A stretch of 64,000 bases of DNA from positions 1,479 through 65,478 of the forward strand of contig CAIRTQ010000094.1 in the NCBI GenBank assembly GCA_903881545.1, in the 5' to 3' direction. The notes below the pieces were generated by a model. The model was not told where the DNA came from. It searched no databases and saw nothing but the letters and a program-made list of their open reading frames with translations. Source of the stretch: an uncultured Elusimicrobia bacterium. GTDB taxonomy: Bacteria; Elusimicrobiota; Elusimicrobia; UBA1565; UBA9628. Position 1 is the first letter of the stretch, and each line of letters opens with the position of its first letter. Both the position numbers and the translations under genes were made by a program. Positions 34,207 to 57,400 of this stretch are shown here, piece after piece.

Positions 34207-34444
34207 TTCAATCCTCTTGCCGGCCTCGTGGGAATTTGGGCTCATGAATAATAGCATGATTGAGGCGCGAGGGAAAACCGCGCATCAAATCATATGAAAC
34301 ATTAAGAGTGTCCCTAAGTCGTACGTGGCGTGGTTTTTGTACGCCCGCTCGCCGATGTTGGCGAGCGGAACCGGAGGCCGAAGGCCGACGGAGCTGTGGC
34401 CGTCATTTGGATACGCTCCCGGCTTCGTTTCCGGGATATATCAA

Positions 34445-34516
34445 GTTATCTCCGACCTTATCTCCGACCTTATCTCCGACCTTATCTCCGACCTTATCTC
34501 CGACCTTCTCCCGCGC
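34445..34516. repeat. 12-nt direct tandem repeat (C/G)TTATCTCCGAC x5 plus a degenerate 6th unit
   Basis: Read directly from the sequence: gttatctccgac followed by four copies of cttatctccgac, then cttctcccgcgc. On the minus strand it encodes (KVGD)n. Confidence 0.85.
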
Positions 34517-34660
34517 CTTTAACGAACGCTCTGGCGAGCGATGAAACACGGCTCGGAAAAATCCGTTCGCTTCGAACTCAGGCGCCTTGAGCCCCGCCTC
34601 GGCCATGGCGTCCTTCATCCGCTTCATGCGCTGCGCCACTTTATGAAAGAGTTGCTGACA
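34445..34660 (-). pseudogene. Remnant of a RecG-like/AlbA_2-HATPase_c_4 'putative transcriptional regulator' gene (C-terminal fragment only)
   Basis: Minus-strand frame encodes ...AQRMKRMKDAMAEAGLKAPEFEANGFFRAVFHRS followed by the (KVGD)5 repeat. The GL.xPEFE...F.V.F.R motif matches the C-terminal region of this regulator family. No N-terminal ATPase part is present. Confidence 0.35.
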
Positions 34661-34792: not shown

Positions 34793-37700
34793 CTACTCCT
34801 TCTCAAACCCATGATTTTCGAACTTGAGGGTACGGCAATTCTCGGTGACGGTACGGACTACATGGTCTGGAACACCGAATGGGATATTCGCCTCGACCTC
34901 CAGGGTGACCTTGACCTCGGAGCCCACGATCCCGGCGAGGTGCGCGATAACCTCGTCGGCAATGCGGCCGGCGTCGCGGCCGACCCGCGTTGTTTCAAGC
35001 GTTACGCTCCCATGGAAACGCTTCGGTGGCGCCGCCACTACAGCAACCTTGGCGCTGGGAGTGCTGCTTCCCGACACCGCGATTGATGGGCCGCCGGACC
35101 CATTGGAAGGTTTCGCCGCCTCGTCCGGCGCTTGAGGGGCTTCGACTGCCAGTTGACGTTGGGCAGCATCTGGACGTACTATCAGGCCCAATGGACTGTC
35201 CTCGGCAATCCAGATGTGTTGACCGAAACGGAGACCACGATAACGGCCTGCGGTTTCGTCAAAACTCTCGGCATAAGCGAAAGAGTCTTGCATCCAGGTC
35301 AACAGAGCAAGGCCGCTCAAGATCGCATCGATGAGAACGGCTGAATCCTTTAGCCGCGGTAGATAGAGATACCGAGCGAAGTCCTCAGCTAATTGCTGGA
35401 TCGCCACATGATCCCCGCCGGCCTGTGCCGTATCCCGCGATGCGGCTGGCGCGCGCCACAGAGGGACCTGATCCAATTCCAATCGCAACCGGCTGGCCGC
35501 TAGCCCCGTAATCAAGAGTTCATCTTTACACAGCTTCTTGCTTGCACGAACCGCCAACGCATCCTGGCCTGTAAGACGGAAGGACTGCCATTCGACTGGT
35601 CCTTGTGGGGTTGCCTGTGTAGGCACAATCAACCACTGGTAGGTTTCTGGCAATCGGGCCGCAACCGCGCTGCTGGCGTTTTCCTTCTGTGCTACAGCCT
35701 GCTTGCTCTGGTGTGGGTCAAGATTGAGCGTTTCCGCTTCGTCGACGATGGAGGACCACGCCAGAAATCGGCGGATGGCCTCGTCCAGGTCTTGAAGCCG
35801 GTTTTTATCGGGCGCGAGAAAAACCAGGGCGTTACGGTAGATGCGCGGAGCGGTCCCGCGATTCTGCACCATCTCTTTCGCGGCCGCGATGGCCGGGCTC
35901 TCCGTGTCCTTAGTGTGCGGATACTCAATGCCGAATACGACCAGCCGAGCGTCCTTATCATCAGGCACGTCACCCGATGTCTTCGGCAATGGATGGATGC
36001 GGCTGAAGTCTCCGGCCTTGCGCAAATCATTGCGGAGCCACTTGCCGACTTCTTCCGCCACGGCATCCGGGTCCGACTTGAGTTGCTCGGCTCGGTCATC
36101 GGCCAGTTTCGTCACCGTCGGCTGTGTCGAATACCAATAGCGAGCAGAATCCTGGTAAAGAAAGGTTGCGGCACCGGCGAGCCGGCGCAAAGCATCGCCG
36201 AAGATGGCCGGCGACTCACCCGGCATCACGCAGCCCAACTTAATCCACCTGTCCTCCAGGCCCTTGTGGGCCGCCTTGGCTGTTGGGGCCGAACCAAGAT
36301 AGACTGTTCGCGCCACACGGCGGCAGGCGGAGTACTTGCCGAGGTTCGGCGTTTCCGCGTCAATGCGCAGCGGAACCGAGTTGGGGCCATCCACATCCTT
36401 TTCGATCACCGGCACCCAGTTGTCGGAGAGATAGCGGGTCAATTCGAACTGCACGCGAGGGTCGTCAATCGGGATATTTGAAGGCAGGATCAACGGACTG
36501 CGGTCGCCTTTCTCCCAGAGGCTGTGGATCACGGTGGCCATCAGACGCAGGACGCCCCGGGTGCGCTGGAACTTCACCAGCGTGGACCAGTCGTTGTACA
36601 GCCGATCAAAGACCTCTGGATGAATAGGATAGGCGGCCTTCAGCCGCCTCTCGTAGTCGCTATCGTGGCACTCCGGTGGAAACTCCGCCTGCTGGGTGCG
36701 ATAGAGGTCGAAGAACGCCTTTGCCACGGTGTCGCGGGCGACAAACTGGTCCTGCTCGATCAAGGGCTCGAACAGCCGCCGGCGCACGATCTCGAACCCC
36801 TCTTCGGCGCTGGCCGGCCGCCAAGATGCTTCCACGCGGCCAATCGAATTGCGCAGGCGGTCAAGCGCGGCCCGGCCGCGCTCACCGCCCACCTCTATGT
36901 CATCGGCCTGCGCGTGTGGCGACCCGGTCGTATCGGACGCCGGCAGACTAACCACCAGCAAGCACTGCTTCGCAAGCTTGGCGGATTCCGTGAGCGCCTG
37001 GGCGAAGGTGAAGTGCGTCTCGAAGTTGCCGCCTGGCAGGTCGCCCTGATCGTGGAGTTGGCGGGCGTAGGCTACCCATTCGTCAATGAGGATCAGGCAC
37101 GGACCGTAGTCGTTGAACAGGGCACGCAGTGCATCCCCGGGATTCGTGGCTCTCTCATCGTCCGCCTGAATGCGCTTAAAAGCCTTCTTAGCTTCTTTCT
37201 CACCGCCAGCCGAGTAGCCGAGCTGCCAAGCGATTTCCCCCCACAAGGTGCGGATCACGGTTCCGCCTGGCTTGGTCACCGGGTTGCCGGGGGAAATCTT
37301 GTTGCCCACCAAAACAACTCGATTGACCTTCGGCAGCTTGGTCACTTCGGCGTGCTGGAGGACCGAGTCCACACCAAGAAGCTCTCCGGGCGCGATGCCG
37401 GAGAAGAGGTGATAGAGGGCCAGCATGGAATGGGTTTTGCCCCCCCCGAAGTTCGTCTGGAGCTGAACGACCGGATCGCCACCCATGCCGCTAAGCCTCT
37501 GGGCGGCACTGGCCAGCAAGCCCCGCAAACTTTCCGTGAGGTAGGTGCGGCGGAAGAATTCCTTCGGTTTGCGGTACTCGTCCGAACCTTCGCCTAAATG
37601 AACCTGCCATAGGTCGGCGGCGAACTCCGCCTGCTGATACTTCCCGCTGGCCACGTCCTTGTGGGGACTCGCAACCTCCTTCCAAGGTTTAAGCCCGGCT

Positions 37701-38194
37701 TGCGCCTGTGTCTCGATGGTTGTGCTGGCGCTCTTGCGCTTTTCCGTGCGCACTTGCTCGTCGAAGCGTACGCGGAGCAATTCCATCTTCATCTTTTCGA
37801 CTTCGTCCGCCTCCGGTGCGGATACGGAAGCCAGAAGCCGGGCGGCGCTGTCCAGGGCGCGGTAGGCGTCGTCGGTGCTGAAGGGCCGCTGATGCGCCCA
37901 GCGATTGCGGGTTTCCCGCAACTCGCTGACTAGCGTGCGTTCGGCCTGCCCCAAGGTTTTGCGGAAAACATCGTTCCACTGGTTCCACATCGTAACGAGG
38001 ATGGCGGATGCATCCCACTGCGGCGCCTCCGGGGTTCCTAGGAGTTGAAGCTGGGAATCGGCGAGGGTGCGCTTTGTGTCAGCGAACCAGTTCGGCGGAT
38101 TGGTGTTTTTTAGCTCGCGCTCGACGAAGGGTTTTAGGCCTGACGACAGCAACTCCAACATCTTGCCGACGCGTTCGTGATTGGTAATGGCCAT
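34793..38194 (-). CDS. DUF499-family P-loop ATPase (BrxC/PglY/HmaC-like) with an N-terminal Swt1-like HEPN domain
   Basis: 1133 aa. The N-terminal ~130 aa carry a HEPN R-x4-H motif (RNRWAHQ). Walker A (NFGGGKTHS) and Walker B (CLILIDEWVAY). Size and architecture fit DUF499 defence ATPases. Confidence 0.8.
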   Translation of the reverse strand: MAITNHERVGKMLELLSSGLKPFVERELKNTNPPNWFADTKRTLADSQLQLLGTPEAPQWDASAILVTMWNQWNDVFRKTLGQAERTLVSELRETRNRWAHQRPFSTDDAYRALDSAARLLASVSAPEADEVEKMKMELLRVRFDEQVRTEKRKSASTTIETQAQAGLKPWKEVASPHKDVASGKYQQAEFAADLWQVHLGEGSDEYRKPKEFFRRTYLTESLRGLLASAAQRLSGMGGDPVVQLQTNFGGGKTHSMLALYHLFSGIAPGELLGVDSVLQHAEVTKLPKVNRVVLVGNKISPGNPVTKPGGTVIRTLWGEIAWQLGYSAGGEKEAKKAFKRIQADDERATNPGDALRALFNDYGPCLILIDEWVAYARQLHDQGDLPGGNFETHFTFAQALTESAKLAKQCLLVVSLPASDTTGSPHAQADDIEVGGERGRAALDRLRNSIGRVEASWRPASAEEGFEIVRRRLFEPLIEQDQFVARDTVAKAFFDLYRTQQAEFPPECHDSDYERRLKAAYPIHPEVFDRLYNDWSTLVKFQRTRGVLRLMATVIHSLWEKGDRSPLILPSNIPIDDPRVQFELTRYLSDNWVPVIEKDVDGPNSVPLRIDAETPNLGKYSACRRVARTVYLGSAPTAKAAHKGLEDRWIKLGCVMPGESPAIFGDALRRLAGAATFLYQDSARYWYSTQPTVTKLADDRAEQLKSDPDAVAEEVGKWLRNDLRKAGDFSRIHPLPKTSGDVPDDKDARLVVFGIEYPHTKDTESPAIAAAKEMVQNRGTAPRIYRNALVFLAPDKNRLQDLDEAIRRFLAWSSIVDEAETLNLDPHQSKQAVAQKENASSAVAARLPETYQWLIVPTQATPQGPVEWQSFRLTGQDALAVRASKKLCKDELLITGLAASRLRLELDQVPLWRAPAASRDTAQAGGDHVAIQQLAEDFARYLYLPRLKDSAVLIDAILSGLALLTWMQDSFAYAESFDETAGRYRGLRFGQHIWIAEDSPLGLIVRPDAAQRQLAVEAPQAPDEAAKPSNGSGGPSIAVSGSSTPSAKVAVVAAPPKRFHGSVTLETTRVGRDAGRIADEVIAHLAGIVGSEVKVTLEVEANIPFGVPDHVVRTVTENCRTLKFENHGFEKE

Positions 38195-38197
38195 GGA

Positions 38198-40027
38198 TTA
38201 CTCCGTTTGGGACAGCTTTGGCGTGTCCAACACCACAATGTCCTTAAAGTGTTCCGCCAGCCGATCTAACTTCTCGGCCACTTCAGGAGGCAAGTCGCTG
38301 GATGCGACGTCCTCGATCATTTGGCAATATTCGCCCTTTCGCAGAAGGACTGGCTGCTTTTGCCGCCGCGCGAACTCCTCGAACACGCCTTCGGCGAATT
38401 CGCTCATCTTGAGGTTACTGAGTAATGTCTTCTGCAAGCTGGCACTGGCCGTCTTATACTCGTCAAGCTGCTGGCGATCTCCAGCAAACACCTTCTTCAG
38501 AAGATGCTCATCCAGCACCTCCTGCATCGTTTTGACGTTCGACTCGGTGAACAAACCGCCTTCCTGATCGAAGACGCCGACAACAAATTTCAGAATGAGA
38601 TCAGGAGTAATATAGTAATTCTCAATCTCATAGCGTTGCCAATAAAGGATATCCAGGCCCTCCCCGCTTTCATCAGACAAGTCCCGCGCATCCTTGTCCA
38701 GAATGGCCAATCCCTTAAACTCCGGCACCAGTCCCTTCATGGCATGAAAATGGCGCTTAATGTTTTCCTGGAATGCCCCGCCCAGCCGATCTAGTTGATT
38801 GTCGAGCGTGTCGGCGGGCCCGACATTACGCGTGTAGTAGTAGTTGATGCGCCCCGCGAGCACCCCTGACGCAGGATGTTTAAGCTTCGCCGCGAGCGCC
38901 TTGAGCGTGTCAAAATCCGTGGATCCTTCGATATAGAGGATTCGGGGACACACTCGCGCTTTGTAGTAATGCTCGACCCCGAATGTCCGCAACGAGTTTC
39001 GCACGTTCTGCATCGTTGCAAGGTCGGCGGCCGTCCCATTAATAAGCAACGTCAGGTTGGTCTCGATCGCGTCGTCCAGAATGACTTCCGAATGTGTGGC
39101 CACCACAACTTGACTATTGTTCTCCGCCGCCACGTCCTTAAGCATCTCATAAACTTGTTTCTGCCGTAAAACTTCGAGATGAGCATCCGGTTCGTCAATC
39201 AGAAGCACGCTGCCCTTATTTGTGTAGAGATAGGAAAGGATCAACAGCATTTGCTGGAACCCACGCCCTGCCAGCGCGATGTCCATGTCGGCGTCAGTAT
39301 CTGGCTGGCTATAGCGCACGACCAATTCGCCGCGCTTCTCGTCTAGGCGTGGTCTGCCGAGCGCAACACCGAACAGTTTCTGGATCAGACGACCGATGCG
39401 GTCCCAATCTTCTGTTCTCTTTTCCTTGTCGTTCTCAACGACCTTGAAGCAGAGGTTGCGGAGCACCTGCGCCGTCTGGCCTTGCCCCAGCAGGACGTTA
39501 ACGCGGCCCTCGGGCACGAGGGTTTCGACCGGCTCAATTCCTGACATCGGGTAGAGCAAATGAAATGGGATGCTGCTCGCATGCGCAATTAGAGCATCGT
39601 CCTTCAGCGTCTCCTCACACGGCCGGCAGTAAAGGACCTCGCTGTCACGCACGGTAAACTCCATGCGACAGTCCTTGACCAGTCCGCCGTGCTCGACGCC
39701 CACATTGACCGTCAAGCGAATGGAGGCATTGTCCTTCCGCACCCGCATTCGGTTCCACAAAAAGCGATTCTCGGAGACCGGCACCTCAAGGATGCTCAGC
39801 CGGTTGATGCCTGCTGCGACCCGCTCTCTCTTTTCCTTCTGCCGAGGCCGGCCCTTGCGCTCGTACCATGCCTGCACGCCGCGGCTCCATAGGGCGAGGG
39901 CCTGGATCACGCTGGTTTTCCCGGCATTGTTTGGTCCGATCAGTACGGCAGGATGTCCCAGGTCCACATGAATTTTCCCACCAAATATCTTAAAGTTCTC
40001 GATTTCGACATAACGAATGCCTCGCAT
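38198..40027 (-). CDS. ABC-type (AAA_15/AAA_21, OLD-family-like) ATPase fused to a C-terminal DUF4435/TOPRIM-like domain (single-polypeptide PARIS AriA-AriB-like)
   Basis: 609 aa with Walker A (GPNNAGKTS), Walker B (VLLIDEPDAHLE) and H-loop (VVVATHS). The C-terminal ~200 aa carry YIEGSTDFD and DKDARD motifs resembling DUF4435 (YVEG ... DRD). Confidence 0.7.
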   Translation of the reverse strand: MRGIRYVEIENFKIFGGKIHVDLGHPAVLIGPNNAGKTSVIQALALWSRGVQAWYERKGRPRQKEKRERVAAGINRLSILEVPVSENRFLWNRMRVRKDNASIRLTVNVGVEHGGLVKDCRMEFTVRDSEVLYCRPCEETLKDDALIAHASSIPFHLLYPMSGIEPVETLVPEGRVNVLLGQGQTAQVLRNLCFKVVENDKEKRTEDWDRIGRLIQKLFGVALGRPRLDEKRGELVVRYSQPDTDADMDIALAGRGFQQMLLILSYLYTNKGSVLLIDEPDAHLEVLRQKQVYEMLKDVAAENNSQVVVATHSEVILDDAIETNLTLLINGTAADLATMQNVRNSLRTFGVEHYYKARVCPRILYIEGSTDFDTLKALAAKLKHPASGVLAGRINYYYTRNVGPADTLDNQLDRLGGAFQENIKRHFHAMKGLVPEFKGLAILDKDARDLSDESGEGLDILYWQRYEIENYYITPDLILKFVVGVFDQEGGLFTESNVKTMQEVLDEHLLKKVFAGDRQQLDEYKTASASLQKTLLSNLKMSEFAEGVFEEFARRQKQPVLLRKGEYCQMIEDVASSDLPPEVAEKLDRLAEHFKDIVVLDTPKLSQTE

Positions 40028-40039
40028 AGCTTTACCCCT

Positions 40040-41506
40040 TTAGAACAGCTCTGCCTGCGGTGTCTGAGATTCCCCGTCCTTGCGTGATAGGCGGGCCAAT
40101 TCCGGCCAGCCCATCACCAGCGCATTATAGCTTTGAGCGCCCTTACTCCACTGCTTCTTCTCGCAGACGGTGAACAGTTTATAGGCCAGGTCGCGGGCCA
40201 CATCCGCTTTACCGCCCAACTTGCGCAAGAGCGCCGCTGTGGCCGCGTCGCCTCGCTTCTCGGATACATACACGCGCAGCAGGTGATGGGTCATCTCCCA
40301 TACTGTCAGGCGCTTGTCCGTAGTGGGATCCCAGTCAGCCGGCAACTCCTCCGGACGAAGAAGACGGACCTGGTTGCCCTTGACCTCCACGATGCCAGCG
40401 GCGACGAGGCCATTCATGGCAGTGGCCTGCGCATTGGCCAGCAGGTTGGCCTGTCCGGCCTCGCCCCATTCAAATCCCGTGCCGGCGAACCAGGTCACCG
40501 CCCACCGCGTGTCCTTGTCGAGTTCCTCAACGGCCTCACCAAGCAATTCATCCTTCATGCCGTTGATGAGGGCCAGCGCGGTGCGAACGGCCATCGGCTT
40601 GCCATTGCTCTCCAACACGGCGGAGTAGCGGGAAAAGACCGCCATGCCGGGACCGATGGCCGCTTGCGCAAAGTCCACCGGGGCCACGTTGCCCTGTTGT
40701 AGATGGTGTAGCGCTGGCGGTAGCTCGCGTTTTAACTCTGCCACGAACGCATTCCGGCCGACTCGTAGCGCATCCGCCGGGCGCGGCCTACAGGCGAGCA
40801 CGATGTAGGAGGCTAGAGCGTTGGAACCCATCGCGCGCATTCGCCATGCTTGCGATGCGCGTACCGGCCACGTCCCAGTAATCTGGAAGTTGCTTGAGAT
40901 CAGTGCGTCAAGGAGCGTCTCCCAGCCTGTTGTGAGATCAATTCCCGCGGCCTCCGTCGATGCTTCATCCGCACCGCTTCCCTCGTCGTCTTGCTTGAAA
41001 GCGTAGTAAACGGTAAGCGGGAAGTGCGGATCCATCTCGTCCCGCAGGGCCGTGAAAGCCTTCCGGAATCCCGTCTCAAAATGTTGCTTAGCCCTTTCCT
41101 TGTCGCCCTCGAACCGGTCGGGAGAGGCGATCAGTTCCGTCATCTTGGGGACGAGCACGGTACGGAAAATGTCCGGATAATGTTCTCCGATTGTGCGTCT
41201 CAGCCAGACATAGGAGAAGTCCGACAGCGCGCCGTAGCTAATATTGTCGTAGTAGGGCGGATCGGTGCTGACCAGCAAGTTGCGGAGGCCGTTTGCGCCG
41301 GGGCAGCGTCGGCTTGGTGGACTGTCGCTACGGCTTCCGGATTCGGCGTTATCGTCTGAATGGCATCTGCGCATATGTCGACCGCGGTGTGCCAGCACAC
41401 GGCTTTTTCGCCCATTATGTTTGGCTCGACGAAGTCCCAGACCAACCGAATGACCTGTAGTCCGAAGAGATCCATTGACTGCTGACCACTCGCTTTCCAC
41501 CGGCAC
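40040..41506 (-). CDS. DUF1156-family N6-adenine DNA methyltransferase, C-terminal part (real portion begins near nt 41300, containing DPPYYDN motif IV)
   Basis: LLVSTDPPYYDNISY... and the downstream C-terminal domain. Upstream of about 41300 this frame is R/S-rich nonsense. Confidence 0.75.
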   Translation of the reverse strand: MPVESEWSAVNGSLRTTGHSVGLGLRRAKHNGRKSRVLAHRGRHMRRCHSDDNAESGSRSDSPPSRRCPGANGLRNLLVSTDPPYYDNISYGALSDFSYVWLRRTIGEHYPDIFRTVLVPKMTELIASPDRFEGDKERAKQHFETGFRKAFTALRDEMDPHFPLTVYYAFKQDDEGSGADEASTEAAGIDLTTGWETLLDALISSNFQITGTWPVRASQAWRMRAMGSNALASYIVLACRPRPADALRVGRNAFVAELKRELPPALHHLQQGNVAPVDFAQAAIGPGMAVFSRYSAVLESNGKPMAVRTALALINGMKDELLGEAVEELDKDTRWAVTWFAGTGFEWGEAGQANLLANAQATAMNGLVAAGIVEVKGNQVRLLRPEELPADWDPTTDKRLTVWEMTHHLLRVYVSEKRGDAATAALLRKLGGKADVARDLAYKLFTVCEKKQWSKGAQSYNALVMGWPELARLSRKDGESQTPQAELF

Positions 41507-42870
41507 AGAGCATTATTGAAGTCTGCGCAGCGATCAACCGCGAGGGCAAGAAACGTCGCCACCGACTGGGCATAGGCACCGGCCTCTGCATGGGTCCAAC
41601 CCGCCGCAATAGCATCGCGCCGCACGTCCGCGTCGATCTCCTTTACTAGGTCACTCAAAGTCACCATTGCCGTGAGCTGCCGGGGAGTAAAAAGCTGCCA
41701 GTGCTTCCGAATGCCGTAGTTCTGAACCCGGAAGCCTAGTGCTTCATCGGGAAGATCTGTATCTGGGAAGCCCTGCGGTTTGGCTGAATTAGCGGCCTCG
41801 ACCTGCTCCGGGCTTATCGGGATATAAGTACGACCGCGGGGGAGCTCAGCTACAACTGCGAGCATGACGCATCCCAGCCGACCACTTTGCCCTTCACTGC
41901 GAATGTACTCAAATGGGATGGGTGCGTCGGTGAGCAGGCACCGAAACCCCCCCCTGCCTCCCTTCGTTCCCTCATCAATTTGTGTCCGATTTACGGGCGC
42001 TCCCGTCCGCACCACAAACCGGTAAGTACACTTGGCCTTGTCCACCACCGGCTCCATCCAGTGATAAGGCGGCTTCTTGTCCTTCCTTGGGGAATTCAGC
42101 CAATACGTGCTGATGAGCGGCACATGGATGCCTCGTGCCGCAGGGTTCGGGCTAGCAACCGTGCGAGCCCAAATCCATGCGATGACGTTGGCCTCGCCGC
42201 TTCCATTTTCCTTAGGCAGGTGCACCTTAGGGTAAAGACTTCCAATCTTCGCATACGCTCTATGGCGAACCAGCCGCCCGTAGTAGCGTACGTCGGCTGC
42301 GAGTCCGTTCGCGCCGTGCCAAGACTGTGTACCTCCAATCCGCTTACGGTCCTCCGAATTTACGGGCGGTCTATTCACCCAGCGCGGCGCAAGCTCCAGA
42401 TTGCACTTGTTGAGCATCACTGCGATAGGATTTAGGTCGCCTGCGTGGGCTTCAAATCCAAGTCGGTTAGCCTCAAGAGGGATGGATCCACCGCCGGCAA
42501 ACGGGTCAAGCACGGGCGGGAGCTTTCCGTCGCAGTGCTTGAGCATCTCCTCCTGTGCCTCAGCATAGACCTCCGGATGTTCATGGAGTTTCTTGCCCAT
42601 GAGTCGCCGGATGATCCCGAACAGTCGCTCCCGCTCAGCATCCTGCTTGGCCTCGCTCTTGCCCGCCCACGCCGGATTATCCGAAGGATCGGTCACGACC
42701 GAAGCGAACAGCACCGCCCGCGCGGTCGGCAGCGGCAACCGCGCCCACCAGTGGTGGATGCCCTTCGGATGCGGCCCGATTCCCGGCATCTTGTCGTAGG
42801 ACGACGCATCGTTGATCTCTGGCAGCGGGAGCGCCACCTCGATAAGCTTCTTTTTATACGGAACCGTCAT
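41200..42870 (-). CDS. DUF1156-family N6-adenine DNA methyltransferase, N-terminal part (real portion 42870 down to about 41300; frameshifted relative to the C-terminal part)
   Basis: Starts MTVPYKKKLIEVALPLPEIN (DUF1156 signature N-terminus) with SAM-binding DPFAGGGSIP (motif I). The frame degenerates after about 41300. Its ATG overlaps the PIN gene's TGA stop as ATGA. Confidence 0.75.
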   Translation of the reverse strand: MTVPYKKKLIEVALPLPEINDASSYDKMPGIGPHPKGIHHWWARLPLPTARAVLFASVVTDPSDNPAWAGKSEAKQDAERERLFGIIRRLMGKKLHEHPEVYAEAQEEMLKHCDGKLPPVLDPFAGGGSIPLEANRLGFEAHAGDLNPIAVMLNKCNLELAPRWVNRPPVNSEDRKRIGGTQSWHGANGLAADVRYYGRLVRHRAYAKIGSLYPKVHLPKENGSGEANVIAWIWARTVASPNPAARGIHVPLISTYWLNSPRKDKKPPYHWMEPVVDKAKCTYRFVVRTGAPVNRTQIDEGTKGGRGGFRCLLTDAPIPFEYIRSEGQSGRLGCVMLAVVAELPRGRTYIPISPEQVEAANSAKPQGFPDTDLPDEALGFRVQNYGIRKHWQLFTPRQLTAMVTLSDLVKEIDADVRRDAIAAGWTHAEAGAYAQSVATFLALAVDRCADFNNALCRWKASGQQSMDLFGLQVIRLVWDFVEPNIMGEKAVCWHTAVDICADAIQTITPNPEAVATVHQADAAPAQTASATCWSAPIRPTTTILATARCRTSPMSG

Positions 42871-43418
42871 GGGCACGCTCTGAGCAGGCGCGGATGAGAG
42901 GTCAAAACATCGATCCCGCCAGAGGTGAAATCGCCATCGTTGGTGACCAGTTTCCAGCCATGATGACGGCAAGTCTCGGCGAGGAGGCCGTCGTTGAAGT
43001 CATTCACTCCAGTCTCAAAGTCAGCAAGTACTTGCGTGACGTTGGCGGCGGAAAATGGATGGTCGTGCCTAGTGCAGAGTTTAAGCATTTCTCGTGCGTA
43101 CGTGGCGGCGCCTGCCCCCACAGACTTAAAAGCGGGGGATTTGCGGAACATTTTAAAGTCCGGCTGCGCCGCCTTGTGTAATGCAATCCACTCGATCCGG
43201 CAGTAGCGGTTGAGGTACTCGCTGAGGATCAGTGCATCCATAACCAGGCGTGATCCAGCGGTCAGTATGCCCTTCAGGGCGTTCGAATAGCTGGCAGCAC
43301 GCCAATCGGGCTTATTGGACGGGGCCGGATAGAGGTAGAGCCAGACATTGGCATCCAGCAAAAAGGGCTCGTTCTTCTGGAAAGCATACTTGGAGAGGTC
43401 GTGAGCTTTATTCTTCAT
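42867..43418 (-). CDS. PIN-domain nuclease (VapC-like)
   Basis: About 183 aa from MKNKAHDL. Conserved acidic residues in LLDANVWL, DALILSEY and TNDGDF. Confidence 0.7.
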   Translation of the reverse strand: MKNKAHDLSKYAFQKNEPFLLDANVWLYLYPAPSNKPDWRAASYSNALKGILTAGSRLVMDALILSEYLNRYCRIEWIALHKAAQPDFKMFRKSPAFKSVGAGAATYAREMLKLCTRHDHPFSAANVTQVLADFETGVNDFNDGLLAETCRHHGWKLVTNDGDFTSGGIDVLTSHPRLLRACP

Positions 43419-43767
43419 TATTGCCCACCTCTTCCTTCCACGCCGCATCAAATCGTTTCGGGGCTTTGAAATACGCCTTAGCGTTTTCGACCACGCGCTT
43501 GAGGACTATGCGGTCTTCCTCATCCATGTCGCGGACCGAAAGCAGTTCCCTAATTCGGTCTTCAGGGAACTTGCCGTAGAGCTGCCCAATCGCGGCGTTG
43601 AGGAAAGACGAGATCATCGTCTCCACCTGCTCAAAGGAGAGGGAAACTTTCTTCCCCTCGCTCAGCAGGAGAGCGATCTTGTCGTAAACGCGTTGGCCAT
43701 CATCGGCAGATACGCCCAACGGACCACCGACGATATCGAATACACGAACCACAATTGGCTCACTCAT
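43408..43767 (-). CDS. DUF4325-like (STAS-like) small protein
   Basis: 119 aa (MSEPIVVRVFDIVGG...GKKVSLSFEQVETMISSFLNAAIGQLYGKF) resembling the STAS-like DUF4325 family. Overlaps the PIN gene by 11 nt. Assignment is from memory of the family and is unverified. Confidence 0.45.
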   Translation of the reverse strand: MSEPIVVRVFDIVGGPLGVSADDGQRVYDKIALLLSEGKKVSLSFEQVETMISSFLNAAIGQLYGKFPEDRIRELLSVRDMDEEDRIVLKRVVENAKAYFKAPKRFDAAWKEEVGNNEE

Positions 43768-43785
43768 CTTTCCACTCCATTCTGT

Positions 43786-44655
43786 TTAGAAAATGCTCTC
43801 TGGCGGTATCTCCGACGCCAGAACATAGGATTCTGTGTCGGCAGTGTTGATCTCGATGGTCACGGCCGTACCAGGGAAATCTGCAGCCATCTTCGCGAAG
43901 GACTCCTGGCCATCGCCGAACTCGTAAAATCCGAATCGGGAGGCGATCTGAATTCGGCCCTTGTTCAGCCGGACGAATTCCTGAAGAAACTTCAGGCCCA
44001 ATCCCCCCGGTTGAGGCCCTCTCTTCGTGGTATGGCCCTCCTGCAATGCCCAGCGAATCGCATCAACAGAAGACATTTTGCCGCCGAGAAATCGGCGGAC
44101 GCTTTCCCTAATGCCAATGCCCGCATCCACAATCGTCAGATCGAGTCTTTGCTTCTGCGGGAAGAACTGTCCGCAAACGAAGATCCCGAGTTCTGACTCG
44201 GAATGAATCACGGCATTCTGGAAGACCTCAAAAATCTTCTTCTTAAACACTTTGCCGAGCCCTTCGGACATGCGAGGAATGCCCTTGCCTCTCAGGTGCC
44301 GTTCCACGTAATCGGCAAAGAGCCCTTCGTCCGAACGCTGGAGGCGGCGAAACGGAATGGTGGTTCGGTTCACGTCGTCCAACGCCGGGTAACGGTATTG
44401 CGTCAAGAAACCGTTTTTCCGCAAGATGTGTTCCACCATTTCCGGAACGCTGACCACTTCAATGGCATTGAAGCGATCTGCTACTCGCGCCAGCACCGCC
44501 CCGAGAGGGGCAGCCATGTTGGCGGCGAAAAAACCGACTTGGGACAGATCGAGTTCCAAACGACTGGCCGAAAGCATAGCAGTTTCTCTGGCCAACTCCG
44601 CCAGCCGTTCGTATCCATCCCGGCCGCTTTGGACTGTTGGCAAGCGGGAGATCAT
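43786..44655 (-). CDS. GHKL-superfamily ATPase (histidine-kinase/RsbW-like ATP-binding domain) with an unknown N-terminal domain
   Basis: 289 aa with N-box (EVFQNAVIHS), G1 (IVDAGIGI) and G2 (GGLGLKF). Its ATG overlaps the helicase TGA as ATGA. Confidence 0.7.
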   Translation of the reverse strand: MISRLPTVQSGRDGYERLAELARETAMLSASRLELDLSQVGFFAANMAAPLGAVLARVADRFNAIEVVSVPEMVEHILRKNGFLTQYRYPALDDVNRTTIPFRRLQRSDEGLFADYVERHLRGKGIPRMSEGLGKVFKKKIFEVFQNAVIHSESELGIFVCGQFFPQKQRLDLTIVDAGIGIRESVRRFLGGKMSSVDAIRWALQEGHTTKRGPQPGGLGLKFLQEFVRLNKGRIQIASRFGFYEFGDGQESFAKMAADFPGTAVTIEINTADTESYVLASEIPPESIF

Positions 44656-47600
44656 GATGGCGCTCCAGCCCGCTCTAGCAAATCTGCAAAATTGTAATTT
44701 ACGCTGGTCACGCCGAAGTCTGGCTCCCGCCGGAAAGGGTGGCGGACATAATGAACCCGCTGTTTCTCGCCGTCGAATTCAACGATGGCGAGAATGAAGT
44801 CATCGGGTTTGTTGAGCGAGTACAGGATTTCATTCTTGGTGACGGTGATCGTGGCGGCGCCCGTGACGCGTCCCTTCACCTCAATAAAGCGCAGCCGCCC
44901 GGTGCCAGGCACGCGGCTCTCGATGTCGTAGCCCAGCTTCTCGGTCTCGCGGTCGGCGGGGATGAAGCCCAGGCCGCGCTCGACCATCATCACGGCCTCG
45001 CGTGCTCGCGCTGCCGCGGCCAAGGTGTCGGCTGCGACGCGTGGGAGTTCGGCGGAATGACCTGTCATGGCGGCAAGCAGGCCCGCAGGTATCACCACAA
45101 GGCCGCCCAACACGACCGGGGGCAAAGGGGCGATCTGCCGTTCGAGTTTGAGTTCCTCCATCCGCTTCTGCAACCGTCCCTGAAGGGCATCCGCGCGTTT
45201 CCGCGCTTCATCCGAGTTAAGTCGCGCATTAGGCCTGCCCGCCTGTTCCTGGAGCTTAAGCTCTTCGGCGCGGTGGTCCCAATAGCTGATCTCCTTCGTC
45301 AATCGGTCCTGCACCGCCGCCTCGGTCTTAGCAATGAGATCGAGCTTGCGCGCGCGAACCTCATTAAGGTGTTCGGGCACGACATTCGCGACGGCGTACC
45401 CCTGCGCTTTTTGCTCCAGTTCTCGGGTTATCCAAGCGCATTCCGGTCGGGCCAATATCGCGTCCACCGCCGGTTCGCCGTCCGCCAACGGGCGATAATC
45501 CAGGTAGGGCGCATAATGCGGATTGCGCGCGTTGCCGTCCGCCTCCAGTTCCACATAAAGCATCCGCTTGGATATGACGCGACGCTCCCCCGCCGCCATG
45601 GCGGCGGCAGGCAGGCCCGTCCGTGCCAGGCTTGCGTCCTGAATGGCATGCTCCAGATAAAAGAGTACGCGAGGGCGTGTCCCGCAGTCGCGCTCGTCGA
45701 CCAGCACCGTGCCGCGGCGCAGCAAATCGCGATGGCGTTCAAGGGTGAGGTCTATGGTGACGTCCAGTAACGGGTGCCCCGGGCACAGGAATGCGGCCAG
45801 TGGCTGGCCCTGCGGAGCGACCAGGGATTTCTCAAAGGCAACCCGCTCGTAGCGCGACAACAACGGCTCGGCGATTCCAATGAGCCGGTCGCGATTGCGC
45901 AGAGGAGATGGGACATGCGCGATCTCATAGCGGCGCGGTTCGCGCTGCTTAACCGAACCCCCCAAACGCTGGAAGGCATCGAGGAAGAAAGATTCAACGT
46001 AATGGGGTTGCAAACGACGCGCCTCGGCTCGCTCCATCTCCTCGCGAATGCGGTACACGCGAGTGGCGTCCATCGCGTCGTGCGCGAGAGCATGTTCTTC
46101 GAGCAAATCGCGCAACTTGGCAGGGTCCACGGAATTGGCGACCACTTGCGTAAGCTTGGCGCGAACATCGGGGCGTTCCCCGTAACGAATCGCCTCGATC
46201 AAGAGCTCACGCAGAGGTTTTCCCCCAAATTGGAGCTTCCCTAGCACATCAAAGACTTGGCCTCCCAGGGTTTCCCGGGCCTGTTCCAGCTTTTCCAGCA
46301 GAGTTCGGTATACGTCTCCCTCGCGGGTTTCTTCGGCGACGAGATTCCAAAGATGACAGACTTCGGTCTGTCCAATGCGATGAATACGGCCGAACCGTTG
46401 CTCGATACGGTTCGGATTCCATGGCAGATCATAATTCACCATCAGGTGCGCCCGCTGGAGGTTAATCCCTTCGCCAGCGGCATCCGTCGCCAAAAGGACC
46501 TGAACTGCGGGATCGTGTTTGAATGCTTCCTGCGCCTTCATCCGCTCCTCACGGCCCATGCCGCCATGAATCATCACTACTGCTTCCTTTCGCCCAAGAA
46601 GGGTCGTAATTCGATTCTCTAAGTAGTTGAGGGTGTCGCGGTGCTCGGTGAAGAGGACAAGTTTCTGGCGCGGGGACGAAGTCGGCGGCGGGATTGTCGC
46701 AGACCCGTGAGTGAGTGGGCGCTCAGCCACCTGGGTGGCATGGATGGCGGACGTGAAGATTTCGTTTAACAGTTGGGAGAGCTCACGCCACTTCTTATCC
46801 TCACCGCTCCGGCGGAGCGTGAGCGCCAGCGCTTCAAGGCGCTTTAGCGTCGTGATTTCCGCTTTCAGTTCCGAGATTGTTCGCGCCGCGGTCGACTGGT
46901 CGAGAATCTCCTCTTCCGCCGTCTCGACCTCATTATCAGGGGCGTCTTCGAGATCTTCAACATCCTCATCATCCAGCACCGGGATCCCGGCCGCCATGGC
47001 AGGCGCGGTTACGCTCCCCCGCTGGAGTAATTTCAACTCTTCCAGTTTGCTTTCCAACCGTTCGCGACGACGACGCAACGACTGATAGATGGCTTCAGGC
47101 GACGAGGCCAAACGGCGCTGCAAAATAGTGAGCGCAAAACCGACGGTGCCGGCGCGCTTATCGTTCTGAAGCGCATCAGCCCGGTTGAACTCCTCGCGAA
47201 CGTAGTCGGTCACTTCCTTGTAGAGTTGCGCCTCCGCATCGGAGAGCTTGTATGGAACAGTGTAGGCTATCCGTTCCGGAAACAGCGGAGTCGCATCGAA
47301 CTTGAGCAGCCCTTCCTTGACCATGCGCCGCATCAGATCAGAGGCGTCAGAGGCGTGAACGCCATCACGGAAGCGTCCCTCGAATCTATCCCCATCGAGG
47401 AGCGCCATGAAAAGCTGAAAATCCTCTTCCTTGCCATTGTGCGGCGTCGCGGTCATCAGCAAGAAATTCCGGGTCATAGTGGAGAGAAGCTGACCGAGCT
47501 TGTAGCGCTTCGTATACTTGACCTCGCCATTGAATATGCTGGCGGACATCTTATGCGCCTCGTCGCATACGATGAGATCCCATCGGCAGTCGGGAGCTCT

Positions 47601-48257
47601 CAGCTTGTCTTGAACATCCTCATTGCGCGAGAGCTTGTCGAGCCGGGCGATGACCAGGTTTGTCTCAAGGAACCAGTTGCCAGTGCGAGCGGATTCCAGC
47701 TTGTCATTGGTCAATATCTCAAAAGGCAGGTGAAATCGACGATAGAGCTCATCTTGCCATTGCTCGGCCAGACTGCCTGGACAGACCACCATACAACGAT
47801 GCAGGTCTCCTCGGGCAATTAACTCCTTCATGAGGAGCCCTGCCATGATTGTCTTGCCCGCGCCAGGGTCGTCGGCCAACAAAAAGCGCAGGGGTTGACG
47901 CGGCAGCATCGTGTCGTAGACCGCCGTGATCTGGTGCGGGAGTGGCTCAACTACTGAGGTGTGGACGGCAAGGACCGGGTCAAACAAATGGGCCAATCGG
48001 ATCCGATGAGCTTCGGAGACTAGGCGAAACAGCGCGCCATCCCCATCAAAACTCCATGGCCGTCCTTGAAGGGCCACCTCGACACGCGCTTCGTCCTGAC
48101 GATATAAAAGCTCGTTAGACACTTTACCGGCTGGGTCTTTGTAGGTTAACTCAAGGGCGTCCGAGCCGAACCACTGAACATTGACGACAGAGACAAGGCA
48201 TTCCGGTAAAATGCCTCTTACTGAAGCGTTCGGTTTTAGTTCCTCTAGCTTGCTCAT
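44652..48257 (-). CDS. SNF2/DEAD-like superfamily-2 helicase with C-terminal DUF3883 (HmaA-like)
   Basis: 1201 aa from MSKLEELKPN. Motif I (LADDPGAGKT), motif II (DEAH), helicase C-terminal motifs (LLATDAAGEGINLQ, QRFGRIHRIGQ). C-terminal domain (IEVKGRVTG...TKNEILYSLNKPDDFILAIVEF) typical of DUF3883. Confidence 0.85.
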   Translation of the reverse strand: MSKLEELKPNASVRGILPECLVSVVNVQWFGSDALELTYKDPAGKVSNELLYRQDEARVEVALQGRPWSFDGDGALFRLVSEAHRIRLAHLFDPVLAVHTSVVEPLPHQITAVYDTMLPRQPLRFLLADDPGAGKTIMAGLLMKELIARGDLHRCMVVCPGSLAEQWQDELYRRFHLPFEILTNDKLESARTGNWFLETNLVIARLDKLSRNEDVQDKLRAPDCRWDLIVCDEAHKMSASIFNGEVKYTKRYKLGQLLSTMTRNFLLMTATPHNGKEEDFQLFMALLDGDRFEGRFRDGVHASDASDLMRRMVKEGLLKFDATPLFPERIAYTVPYKLSDAEAQLYKEVTDYVREEFNRADALQNDKRAGTVGFALTILQRRLASSPEAIYQSLRRRRERLESKLEELKLLQRGSVTAPAMAAGIPVLDDEDVEDLEDAPDNEVETAEEEILDQSTAARTISELKAEITTLKRLEALALTLRRSGEDKKWRELSQLLNEIFTSAIHATQVAERPLTHGSATIPPPTSSPRQKLVLFTEHRDTLNYLENRITTLLGRKEAVVMIHGGMGREERMKAQEAFKHDPAVQVLLATDAAGEGINLQRAHLMVNYDLPWNPNRIEQRFGRIHRIGQTEVCHLWNLVAEETREGDVYRTLLEKLEQARETLGGQVFDVLGKLQFGGKPLRELLIEAIRYGERPDVRAKLTQVVANSVDPAKLRDLLEEHALAHDAMDATRVYRIREEMERAEARRLQPHYVESFFLDAFQRLGGSVKQREPRRYEIAHVPSPLRNRDRLIGIAEPLLSRYERVAFEKSLVAPQGQPLAAFLCPGHPLLDVTIDLTLERHRDLLRRGTVLVDERDCGTRPRVLFYLEHAIQDASLARTGLPAAAMAAGERRVISKRMLYVELEADGNARNPHYAPYLDYRPLADGEPAVDAILARPECAWITRELEQKAQGYAVANVVPEHLNEVRARKLDLIAKTEAAVQDRLTKEISYWDHRAEELKLQEQAGRPNARLNSDEARKRADALQGRLQKRMEELKLERQIAPLPPVVLGGLVVIPAGLLAAMTGHSAELPRVAADTLAAAARAREAVMMVERGLGFIPADRETEKLGYDIESRVPGTGRLRFIEVKGRVTGAATITVTKNEILYSLNKPDDFILAIVEFDGEKQRVHYVRHPFRREPDFGVTSVNYNFADLLERAGAPS

Positions 48258-48553
48258 TTGAGAAGACGCATCCCAGCATCCCATCGCCCGGTAGAAAATG
48301 ATTCTATAAAACCAGCACTAGGCCGGGCTAAGCGCAAGGGCACCATTCAGTCGAGTAGGAGATTTTAGCATGATTGGGCCATCGGGATGCGGCAGACTGA
48401 CAATAGTGCTGGCCGAACTCGACGGCGATAGGACGTAAACTGGTCTCCTCGGCGGCACCTGCGCTTCGCTTAGTGCCGCCGGTTGCGCCCGGCATACGGC
48501 CGCCGGGCGCTCGCTACGGCAAAGCCCGAACTTTATTGTCCCTTATCCGGCGG

Positions 48554-54470: not shown

Positions 54471-57400
54471 ATGAGAATCGCGCTCATACAATGTCCGCTT
54501 TGGGGGACGTTCGACCCTCCCATAGGCTTGGCGCAGATGGCCTCGTTCATGAAGAGCCAGGGTCATGAGGTCGCCGCCTGGGACATCAACATCAAGGCGT
54601 TCTTGAGCCAGCCGGAGGAGCGCAAGAGCCTCTGGGCCTGGGAAAAGACCGAGCTGTGGACCTTCCCGGACCAGGTCCAGAGGATATTCTCGGAGAATCT
54701 GGGGGTCGTGGACCGCTGCATCGACCAGGTGCTCGGACGCGGGATCCGCTTGCTCGGCATCTCCGTCAATTCGGCTTCTTACCTGTTCAGCCTGGAATTC
54801 GCCCGGCGGCTCAAGTCCCGGGAAGGCCGCATCCGCATCGCGCTGGGCGGGCCGTTCTTCCTGAAGCCGGCCGCGACGGCCGACGCCCTGCGGGAGGACT
54901 GCGTCGATTTCGTCATCGCCGGAGAGGGCCTCGCGGCTTTCGCGGAGCTGGCCCGCAGGCTCGACTCCGGCGCGGATGCCTCCGGCTGTCCGGGAGTGGC
55001 AGGCAAGGGCGCCGGACTGGAGGTGAGCAATCCCCCGCCGCCGCCCGCGGACTTGGACGCCCTGCCGTTCCTGGACTTCAGCGATCTTCCTCTCGGCGAT
55101 TACGACACCGGCAATCATCTCTCGCTGATGACGAGCCGCGGCTGTCCCAGGCAGTGCCACTTCTGCAGCTGCGCGCCCTGCTGGCCGGGCTACCGGGTCA
55201 TGAGCGGGCGGCGCATCTTCGAGGAGGTCAGGCACCACAAGGAGCGGTTCGGGCACGGGCTGGGGCATGTGGATTTCGTGGACCTGGCCTTCAACGGGAA
55301 CATGGAGTCGCTGTCGCAGTTCTGTGCCCTGATGGACCGCGCCGACCTCGACCTCAGCTGGACGGCCAACATGTACGTGCGCCCGGAGATGAAGGCTCCC
55401 GTCATCGCGGCGATGGCGCGCGCCCGCTGCCGGCACGTCATCCTGGGCATCGAGTCGGGGTCGGAGCGCGTGCTCAAGCTGATGAACAAGCATTATCGGA
55501 TCGCGGACGCCGAGCGGATGCTGCGCGAGCTGTTCCAGGCCGGGATATGCGTCACCGCGAACTTCATGTTCGGATTCCCCGGTGAGACCGAGGCGGATTT
55601 CCAGCTCACGCTGGACTTCCTGCGGCGCAACGCCCGTTACATGGGAGTCTATCCCAGCCGGACTTACTGCGCCCTCGAGGAGAACAGCCTCCTGGCCGCG
55701 CACCCGGAGCGGTTCGCGATCAAGCCATCTTCCGCGAGCCACATCTTCTGGGAAAGCAGCGACGGCCGGAACACCTATCCCGTCCGCATGGACCGCTGCC
55801 AGCGCTTCTGCCGGCTGGCGGCCAAGCTGGGCGTCGGGACCAGCGCCGGGGTGCAGACCACGGTGCCGCTCGAGGAATGGCTCACGCTGGGGGCCTATTA
55901 CGAGTTCAAGGGCGACATCCCCAAGGCCATCCAGAGCCTGGCCAAATACTTGAGGCGCGACCCGTGCAATCAGGAAGCGAGGCGGCGCCTCGAGGGCCTG
56001 CGCGGCCGCATCCCGTCCTTGGGCCTGGACCGCAAGAAGTCGGACGGCTTGCGCTCATTGGCGGAGCAAACCCTTTCGCGCCGGCCCACGGCCAAGGCGG
56101 TGCGCAGGGACAGGCCCCTTTCTCCCGTGTTCCTGTCCGTCCGGATGACTTGGCTGGCGGCGCGGCTGGGACGGCTCTCTAAGCGCCGGATCTCCTATCC
56201 GGAGACCATGGCAGTCAAGAAGATCATCACCGAGATCGTCCAGATCGCCAGGCTCCAGAAGCGGTTCCCCCCCAAGGTGTCCCGGGGCTTGCTGCGCCAG
56301 ATGGAGCGGCTGCGGCGTCAGGCCCGCGCCCTGCCGATGGCAAGGGGTCTGAAACTAGAGGAAGGCCTGGCCGGCGACGACCCCTCTTATGTTCAGCTGG
56401 GCATCGCCTCCAGCGAACGGGGCGAATTCCCCCAGGCGTTGAGATTTCATGCCAAAGCCATCGCCATCAATCCCTATAATGACGACGCCTATTGTTATAT
56501 GGGCAACATCCTGCGCAAACAGGGTCAGATGAAGGAATCCGACGCGGCTCTCCAGAAAGCCTTGGAGATTAATCCAAGCAACGACACGGCACGCAGCGGT
56601 TTGGGCTGCTTGTACTTCAGCCAGGGCAAGATTGCAGAGGCCTTGGAGGAGCTCACGAAGGCTATCGGGATAAACCCCAGGAATGACTGGGCTCATAACA
56701 TCCGTGCGGACATCTATCTTAGTCAAGGCCGATTATCCGATGCGGAGGCTGATGCTGTAGCGTCCATAAGAATAGATCCCAGGAACGACGGGGCGCATTG
56801 CAAATCAGGTAAGATCCTCCGGCTCCAGGGCCGTCTGGCCGAGGCGGAAGCGGCATTTGAGAAGGCGTTGGAGGTGAACCCGCGCTGCGTTGAAGCCTGC
56901 ACCGCATTGGGAGACATGCTTCAGTCCCAGCATAGGATCGCGGAGGCTGAAGCGGCGTTCCAACAGGCCGTCGCCATGGATCCGAATGATTATGGGGCGC
57001 ACTTATTTTTGGGCCATATCCGTCGCGAGCAAGGAAGATTGGCGGAGGCCGAAGCGCTCTTCAAACGGGCCTTCGCGATAGACCCCCGTAGCGAGGGCAT
57101 CTGCACGGATCTGGGACAGTTCTATCTTGCGCAAGGCCGGCTTTTGGAGGCGGAAGAAGAGATTCGGAAAGCCATAGAGATTAATCCCAAGAATATCTGG
57201 GATTATCTCATCAGGTCGGATATCCACTGCGGTCTGGGCCGGCTGCCCGAGGCCGAGGCGGACATCCGGAAAGCCACGGAGATCGATCCGCGGAACGACG
57301 GGGCGCATTGCAAATTAGGCAATATCCTCCGGCTCCAGGGCCGCCTGGCCGAGGCGGAAGCCACATTTGAGAAGGCGCTGGAGGTGAACCCGTGCTGTGT

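Follow-up and report, generated by a model that had tools for sequence, protein, structure and literature searches.

The name Hma was coined by Payne et al. (2021) for a three-gene system (PADLOC, PMC8565338). A fusion of a HEPN domain to a DUF499 ATPase had earlier been described in this operon type by Anantharaman et al. (2013), who discussed it as an accessory subunit of restriction-modification (R-M) systems (PMC3710099). In a Halomonas system, the HmaA nuclease was found to defend against T4, and approximately 66% of hma loci have other genes nested within them, among which are AAA_21 ATPases placed between hmaB and hmaC (Tang et al. 2024, PMC11232893). A 2026 survey in Nucleic Acids Research renamed the Hma systems Type-1 BREX-related (BR), counted 1370 of 2446 taxa with the HEPN-fused form of the ATPase, and described a variable C-terminal RRM domain together with OLD-ABC, PIN and other ‘backup’ nucleases; in its authors' proposal, the HEPN domain serves as a suicide effector of last resort with a backup role in abortive infection (PMC12839542). 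Here we analyzed a 64,000-nucleotide stretch of DNA (hereafter the window) from an uncultured Elusimicrobia bacterium (GenBank assembly GCA_903881545.1, contig CAIRTQ010000094.1, positions 1,479 to 65,478), in which an Hma (Type-1 BREX-related) operon, encoded entirely on the minus strand, is closed by the gene hmaC. This gene encodes the HEPN-fused form of the DUF499 AAA+ ATPase of an R-M-like phage-defence operon, and we consider it fairly probable that its HEPN domain acts as a latent backup RNase.

The gene had been delimited in an earlier, sequence-only reading that left its strand unstated. The boundaries of that reading correspond to a genuine open reading frame (ORF), but on the minus strand (Table 1); the plus-strand alternative was rejected, its translation being full of stop codons. 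The gene upstream of hmaC stops 3 nt ahead of the hmaC ATG and the N-terminal residues M1-A2-x-x-N5-x-E7-R8 are invariant among aligned homologues, and for these reasons the start codon is taken to be correct and the HEPN domain to lie within the same polypeptide as the ATPase. No internal stop interrupts the ORF, so that the HEPN region is not a separate gene. From the N-terminus, the protein consists of the HEPN domain, a linker, the ATPase, further downstream domains and a variable C-terminus; the catalytic dyad and the Walker motifs are intact and the whole is under strong purifying selection. The fusion that the sequence-only reading had proposed, a Swt1-like HEPN domain with an R-x4-H motif joined N-terminally to a DUF499 ATPase, was borne out by Pfam, with PF18731 matching residues 11-125 and PF04465 residues 286-820. 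Likewise, RNRWAHQ (residues 96-102) precedes the P-loop GGGKTHS (residues 250-256), as had been noted. The PADLOC HmaC model (PDLC00662), a profile that does not include a HEPN domain, scored 1123.5 bits against residues 168-1131.

The assignment of the N-terminal domain rests on a match to Pfam HEPN_Swt1 (PF18731) of 127.5 bits (cut-off 27.5), which covers the whole profile (1-115 of 115) at an E-value of 4e-37; a match of this strength and extent excludes a chance R-x4-H. Profile comparison of this region had been suggested as a check on the sequence-only reading, and a HEPN family was thus recovered there over its full length. The same Pfam model matched all 59 N-termini in an alignment of N-terminal sequences, for which weak secondary matches centred on the motif were obtained to DUF4145 (33 of 59) and RiboL-PSP-HEPN (6 of 59). 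Residues 1-165, as modelled with AlphaFold2 (mean predicted local distance difference test score, pLDDT, of 86; predicted template-modelling score, pTM, of 0.79), form helices at 5-31, 36-45, 62-77, 83-100, 107-123 and 128-163; the region had been described as all-helical, which holds for its helices but overlooks a small hairpin at 52-59. In the model, the R-x4-H motif is located at the end of helix 83-100, where it enters the loop ahead of helix 107-123. With the polar N97 directly after R96, the sequence R96-N97-R-W-A-H101 conforms to the HEPN pattern R-x4-6-H. The HEPN motif is described as lying where helix 3 ends and passing into the loop toward helix 4, and an upstream acidic E-x3-[KR] element is also described for HEPN domains (PMC3710099). 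A candidate for the latter begins at E25: in the homologue alignment E25, R26 and E27 are invariant and K29 is nearly so.

Conservation was evaluated in a close set of the 120 best full-length homologues (71-100% identity) and in a wider set of 208 N-terminal sequences, most of them fragmentary. Both PF18731 and PF04465 were present in every one of the 120 full-length homologues. The motif R-N-x-W-A-H was kept in 116 of these, and its R and H in 203 of the 208 sequences of the wider set. In a 44-sequence alignment, the invariant positions included R96, N97, W99, A100 and H101, every residue of the P-loop, and D371-E372 of Walker B; the alignment with HEPN-DUF499 homologues that had been proposed as a further check thus found both members of the dyad, R96 and H101, without exception. 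In the remaining four close homologues (P0004, P0005, P0062 and P0075) the HEPN domain is retained but the catalytic R and/or H is missing, the motif variants being WNKWAH, CNRWAH, HQRWAE and YKQWAD.

The ratio of nonsynonymous to synonymous substitution rates (dN/dS) was obtained from codon-level comparisons of hmaC with the corresponding genes of five related loci (L001-L005). The HEPN region (residues 1-145) yielded values of 0.011-0.040, versus approximately 0.04-0.06 for the ATPase and middle region. Residues 901-1133 evolved faster, with values of 0.13-0.16 in three of the four comparisons that could be estimated and 0.06 in the fourth (L005); dS was saturated for L004. By this measure, no part of HmaC is more constrained among close relatives than the HEPN domain.

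Relatives of 53-90% identity were found to be encoded in 18 genome loci, which came from metagenome-assembled genomes (MAGs) of Elusimicrobia, Verrucomicrobia, Syntrophobacteraceae, Acidobacteria and Proteobacteria. Their spread over several phyla indicates horizontal transfer. The HEPN domain was kept in all 17 loci that cover the HmaC N-terminus, and the gene order hmaA...hmaB...hmaC in 12 of the 18, the other six being short or truncated contigs or rearranged (L016). Members of the cluster that contains the query at 90% identity derive from Elusimicrobia MAGs, and one of them carries the NCBI name ‘Swt1 family HEPN domain-containing protein’.

The operon suggests how such a protein could work. 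HmaB would methylate, and so mark, host DNA; HmaC, using ATP and its variable C-terminal domains, would build a complex for scanning or recognition together with HmaA, and the PD-(D/E)XK nuclease of HmaA would attack unmodified invader DNA. Characterised HEPN RNases require two HEPN domains per active site. Each HmaC chain has one, and for that reason its RNase is probably latent at rest. By analogy with other HEPN enzymes, oligomerisation of the AAA+ module, driven by ATP or by the target, may pair two HEPN domains and switch the RNase on; the activated domain would then cut RNA without metal ions, imposing a second-line, abortive-infection-like growth arrest when DNA restriction fails or is inhibited. 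An RNA-targeting, abortive-infection-like output had been anticipated in the sequence-only reading, and it is a reasonable prediction.

Several observations weigh against this latent backup RNase. Both the switch-on by oligomerisation and the abortive outcome are extrapolated from other HEPN systems. When the HEPN model was compared with PDB and BFVD by Foldseek, nothing was returned at E<=0.001, Csm6 appearing only at E-values of 1.6-4.2, and PDB sequence searches, whether with the single protein or with a 59-sequence profile, found no credible homologue. The AlphaFold2 model of the full-length protein was poor (pLDDT 55.6, pTM 0.36), and the arrangement of the HEPN domain relative to the ATPase is not readable from it. 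The four dyad losses among 120 close homologues suggest that the RNase is dispensable in some lineages, where it appears to be inactivated naturally on occasion. In addition, a frameshift in hmaB (see below) may leave the assembled Hma locus less than fully functional. Our search of the literature and PDB for HEPN-DUF499 proteins found no RNase assay, mutant or solved structure. Finally, the HmaC of the Halomonas system, the sole Hma system tested, is approximately 958 aa long and has no HEPN domain, and HmaA alone was protective there (PMC11232893).

The alternative that survives best, though we give it appreciably less weight than the backup role, is that the domain is an active but selective RNase, cutting particular RNAs such as a tRNA anticodon loop (as PrrC and RloC do) or phage transcripts, so that it would confer direct or reversible immunity and not suicide. 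The conserved and strongly constrained dyad fits this possibility as well, PrrC and RloC provide precedents as NTPase-fused HEPN anticodon nucleases (PMC3710099), and the variable RRM-like C-terminal domain of HmaC could supply selectivity for RNA or other nucleic acids. Yet no substrate is identifiable from the sequence, prediction makes the C-terminal domain a non-enzymatic one, with no ligand assigned to it, and published proposals prefer a non-specific backup role (PMC12839542).

It is unlikely that the HEPN domain is instead non-catalytic, serving in dimerisation, RNA binding or nucleotide binding as a regulator of the ATPase. The eukaryotic Swt1 HEPN domains, which are thought to be inactive binders (PMC3710099), would be the model for such a role; the four close homologues that keep the domain minus R and/or H suggest that the fold can be valuable without catalysis, and in the one experiment available HmaA defended independently of HmaC (PMC11232893). 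Against this, R96, N97 and H101 are kept in approximately 97% of homologues, including all 44 sequences of the alignment above, the bacterial Ava_2192-type domain has been classed as ‘Active’ (PMC3710099), and a scaffold role alone does not readily account for dN/dS values of 0.01-0.04.

Least of all is the domain an artefact, whether an R-x4-H arising by chance within a helical leader or a small gene for HEPN alone misjoined to the ATPase: the many short ‘HEPN_Swt1-only’ database entries might seem to favor this, but it is already refuted by the full-profile match, the continuous ORF and the presence of both domains in all 120 full-length homologues. The short entries themselves (P0271-P0388 and P0121-P0270; approximately 130-250 aa) mostly continue into the HmaC linker or into out-of-frame junk, and are best explained as contig-end or frameshift truncations of HmaC, not as stand-alone HEPN proteins. 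A search with the HEPN domain by itself against 1.84 billion cluster representatives (2160 clusters at E<=1e-3) returned almost solely truncated HmaC N-termini, and thus carries no information on other architectures.

Both the HEPN-DUF499 fusion and its interpretation as a backup abortive-infection device are already published (PMC3710099, PMC12839542). With 1370 of 2446 taxa, the HEPN-fused form is the majority form of this ATPase, not an unusual one, and it is already labelled by routine annotation. The protein described here is a clean, typical example of a widespread and bioinformatically well-described architecture and adds no new biology; with an intact dyad and a low dN/dS in the HEPN region, it would be a reasonable choice for experimental tests of the RNase, its trigger and the abortive outcome.

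Table 1. Coordinates of hmaC, its domains and motifs, and the other features of the Hma operon in the window.
Feature	Coordinates	Strand	Evidence
hmaC, 1133-aa HEPN-DUF499 ATPase	34793..38194	(-)	single uninterrupted ORF, ATG start; Pfam PF18731 + PF04465; PADLOC HmaC 1123.5 bits
Swt1-like HEPN domain, residues 11-125	37820..38164	(-)	PF18731 E 4e-37, profile 1-115/115; AlphaFold2 pLDDT 86; dN/dS 0.011-0.040
HEPN catalytic motif R96-N97-R-W-A-H101	37892..37909	(-)	end of predicted helix 83-100; kept in 116/120 close homologues
E25-R-E-L-K29, candidate upstream acidic E-x3-[KR] element of HEPN	38108..38122	(-)	conservation; assignment inferred
Low-confidence linker between HEPN and ATPase, residues 146-193	37616..37759	(-)	pLDDT <50 in full-length model; long helix 128-163 extends into linker
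Walker A / P-loop TNFGGGKTHS, residues 247-256	37427..37456	(-)	identical in 120/120 homologues
Walker B CLILIDEW, residues 366-373	37076..37099	(-)	D371 and E372 invariant
HmaC/DUF499 body (AAA+ core and downstream domains), residues 168-1131	34802..37693	(-)	PADLOC HmaC profile 3-940/941
C-terminal beta-alpha-beta-alpha (RRM/ferredoxin-like) region, fast-evolving, preceded by low-complexity linker	34802..35020	(-)	low-pLDDT secondary structure; dN/dS
Nested OLD-type ABC ATPase, 609 aa, with C-terminal DUF4435/Toprim-like region	38198..40027	(-)	AAA_21/AAA_15
hmaB, DUF1156 N6-adenine methylase, split into two ORFs	40040..42870	(-)	PADLOC HmaB profile 5-566 and 568-960 of 967; DPPY motif
C-run GCCCCGG, one base short relative to intact hmaB	41298..41304	(-)	frame analysis
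Nested PIN-domain protein, 183 aa (ENA gene call)	42867..43418	(-)	PF01850 E 1.4e-9
Nested DUF4325 STAS-like protein, 119 aa	43408..43767	(-)	PF14213 E 6.9e-19
Nested GHKL (HATPase_c) protein, 289 aa	43786..44655	(-)	PF02518 E 8e-6; weak match to anti-sigma F factor spIIAB
hmaA, SNF2 helicase with C-terminal NOV_C/DUF3883 PD-(D/E)XK nuclease	44652..48284	(-)	PADLOC HmaA 1697.6 bits; SNF2-rel_dom, Helicase_C, NOV_C; GYD...IEVK motif

The methylase gene hmaB is split in the assembly. Its two ORFs, which overlap, each scored approximately 480 bits against the PADLOC HmaB profile, and the base missing from the C-run lies 14 codons upstream of the DPPY motif. Addition of one C restores an ORF of 943 aa, equal in length to its counterpart on ENA contig ERZ1426829, which bears an identical HmaC. 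An exact look-up of the repaired 943-aa sequence in the protein collection did not find it, so that only length and frame, and not identity, speak for the repair. Either the assembly is in error here or the frameshift is a real inactivating mutation; the C-run is too short for classic phase variation.

HmaB also diverges far more between related loci (L001-L017; approximately 40-50% identity in the N-terminal half) than do HmaA and HmaC (approximately 70-90%). L001 looks mosaic, with flanks of 71% and 82% identity around a middle that could not be aligned, and L012 has two hmaB-like genes in tandem. This pattern is consistent with swapping of methylase specificity domains.

The genes nested in the operon form two modules. 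The OLD-type ATPase between hmaB and hmaC matched the PADLOC models AriA/AriAB, GajA and Old, and its tail holds the motifs IEGSTD and ILDKD together with a weak DUF4435 match (E 0.02); a copy of 82% identity is present in L005 (8183-9973). It resembles a fused PARIS-like module. Between hmaA and hmaB, the GHKL, DUF4325 and PIN genes form a trio (42867-44655) that recurs at 5827-7615 in L001 and at 3229-5014 in L002. The coupling of PIN with DUF4325 has been catalogued as ‘function unknown’ (PIN.4) (PMC5499597), and no PADLOC system matched the trio, which has the look of a partner-switching pair linked with an RNase. It is tempting to see in one Hma operon three independently triggered RNA- or nucleic-acid-cutting backups (the HEPN domain, the partner-switching-controlled trio as an undescribed module, and the OLD-ABC-Toprim protein), or to cast the HmaC HEPN domain as a primary effector or RNA sensor, but we regard these more ambitious proposals as doubtful.

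The G+C content of the block at 34-48 kb is 55-62%, versus 65-71% in its flanks, a contrast which suggests recent horizontal acquisition of the defence block. No integrase, flanking direct repeats or adjacent tRNA were found at the borders of the defence island, and an Rfam scan of the window identified two tRNAs only. The neighbours of the block and, in a non-exhaustive scan, the larger ORFs elsewhere in the window were housekeeping-like (polyamine enzymes, DUF58/BatA, IleRS, GroEL). One further ORF of 1707 aa (54471-59594, plus strand), with a radical SAM domain at residues 221-384 and a very long TPR array, is unrelated to HmaC.

The 535-nt spacer downstream of hmaC contains a 12-nt tandem repeat, TTATCTCCGACC, in approximately six copies (34434-34517), which on the minus strand reads as (KVGD)n within an orphan ORF of 78 aa (34403-34639). 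This ORF had no match in Pfam, in the related loci or, by tblastn, in plasmids; the idea that it resembles the tail of COG2865-type regulators was dropped for want of support from the same three sources. It may be a gene remnant.

Among known systems, parallels to HmaC include PrrC, kept latent by the EcoprrI R-M system, and RloC, which responds to DNA damage. Like HmaC, each joins an NTPase module and a HEPN RNase in one chain, a putative functional analogy; however, their HEPN domain is C-terminal, their NTPase is ABC/Rad50-like and not AAA+, and they share no sequence similarity with HmaC outside the HEPN motif. Both are listed as HEPN RNases of the tRNA anticodon loop that restrict phage T4 (PMC3710099). 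Eukaryotic Swt1, which gives the Pfam family its name, has a HEPN domain of the same family (PF18731) as that of HmaC, but there the HEPN dyad is fused to a PIN domain and inferred to be inactive (PMC3710099), whereas the HmaC domain keeps R-N-x3-H.

The ATPase had been described in the sequence-only reading as a ‘BrxC/PglY-like’ DUF499 protein of BREX, Pgl or Hma systems. Of these the Hma assignment held, given the PADLOC HmaC match and the accompanying HmaA and HmaB; identity with BrxC or PglY was rejected, as PADLOC at E<=0.01 yielded HmaC and a generic DUF499 model alone, and the relationship to those proteins is a distant one. No PglZ, PglX/BrxX, BrxL or PglW gene was found among the genes at 34.8-48.3 kb. 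BrxC and PglY share with HmaC a distantly homologous ORC/Cdc6-type AAA+ module followed by a triad of winged helix-turn-helix (wHTH), alpha+beta and wHTH domains, as well as a place in methylation-based defence; the tail of BrxC is a coiled coil whereas that of DUF499 proteins is wHTH+RRM, and the DUF499 clades are separate from BrxC (PMC12839542). The NCBIfam equivalog NF042962 (‘anti-phage-associated DUF499’) scored 154.4 bits, far below its cut-off of 1200, and models a DUF499 clade other than that of HmaC.

Among the closest matches are the Hma (Type-1 BR) systems themselves. With these the locus shares a full-profile HmaC match, the presence of HmaA and HmaB, the HEPN-fused variant of the ATPase and a variable, RRM-like C-terminus, for which the low-pLDDT prediction gives strands at 1059-1066 and 1095-1102 and helices at 1071-1090 and 1110-1119; nested OLD-ABC and PIN modules are likewise reported for them. 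It differs from the PADLOC HmaC profile and from the Halomonas HmaC, both of which are without HEPN, and in its frameshifted hmaB. The Ava_2192-type proteins also carry an N-terminal HEPN domain of the Swt1/Abi2 family, classed as ‘Active’, ahead of an AAA+ module at approximately residues 160-460 that overlaps DUF499, and their operon partners are likewise a methylase and an SNF2 helicase that carries a fused DUF3883 restriction endonuclease (PMC3710099). Nothing essential differs between these and HmaC: the present copy is the same arrangement in an Elusimicrobia-like MAG context, with extra genes nested in its operon.

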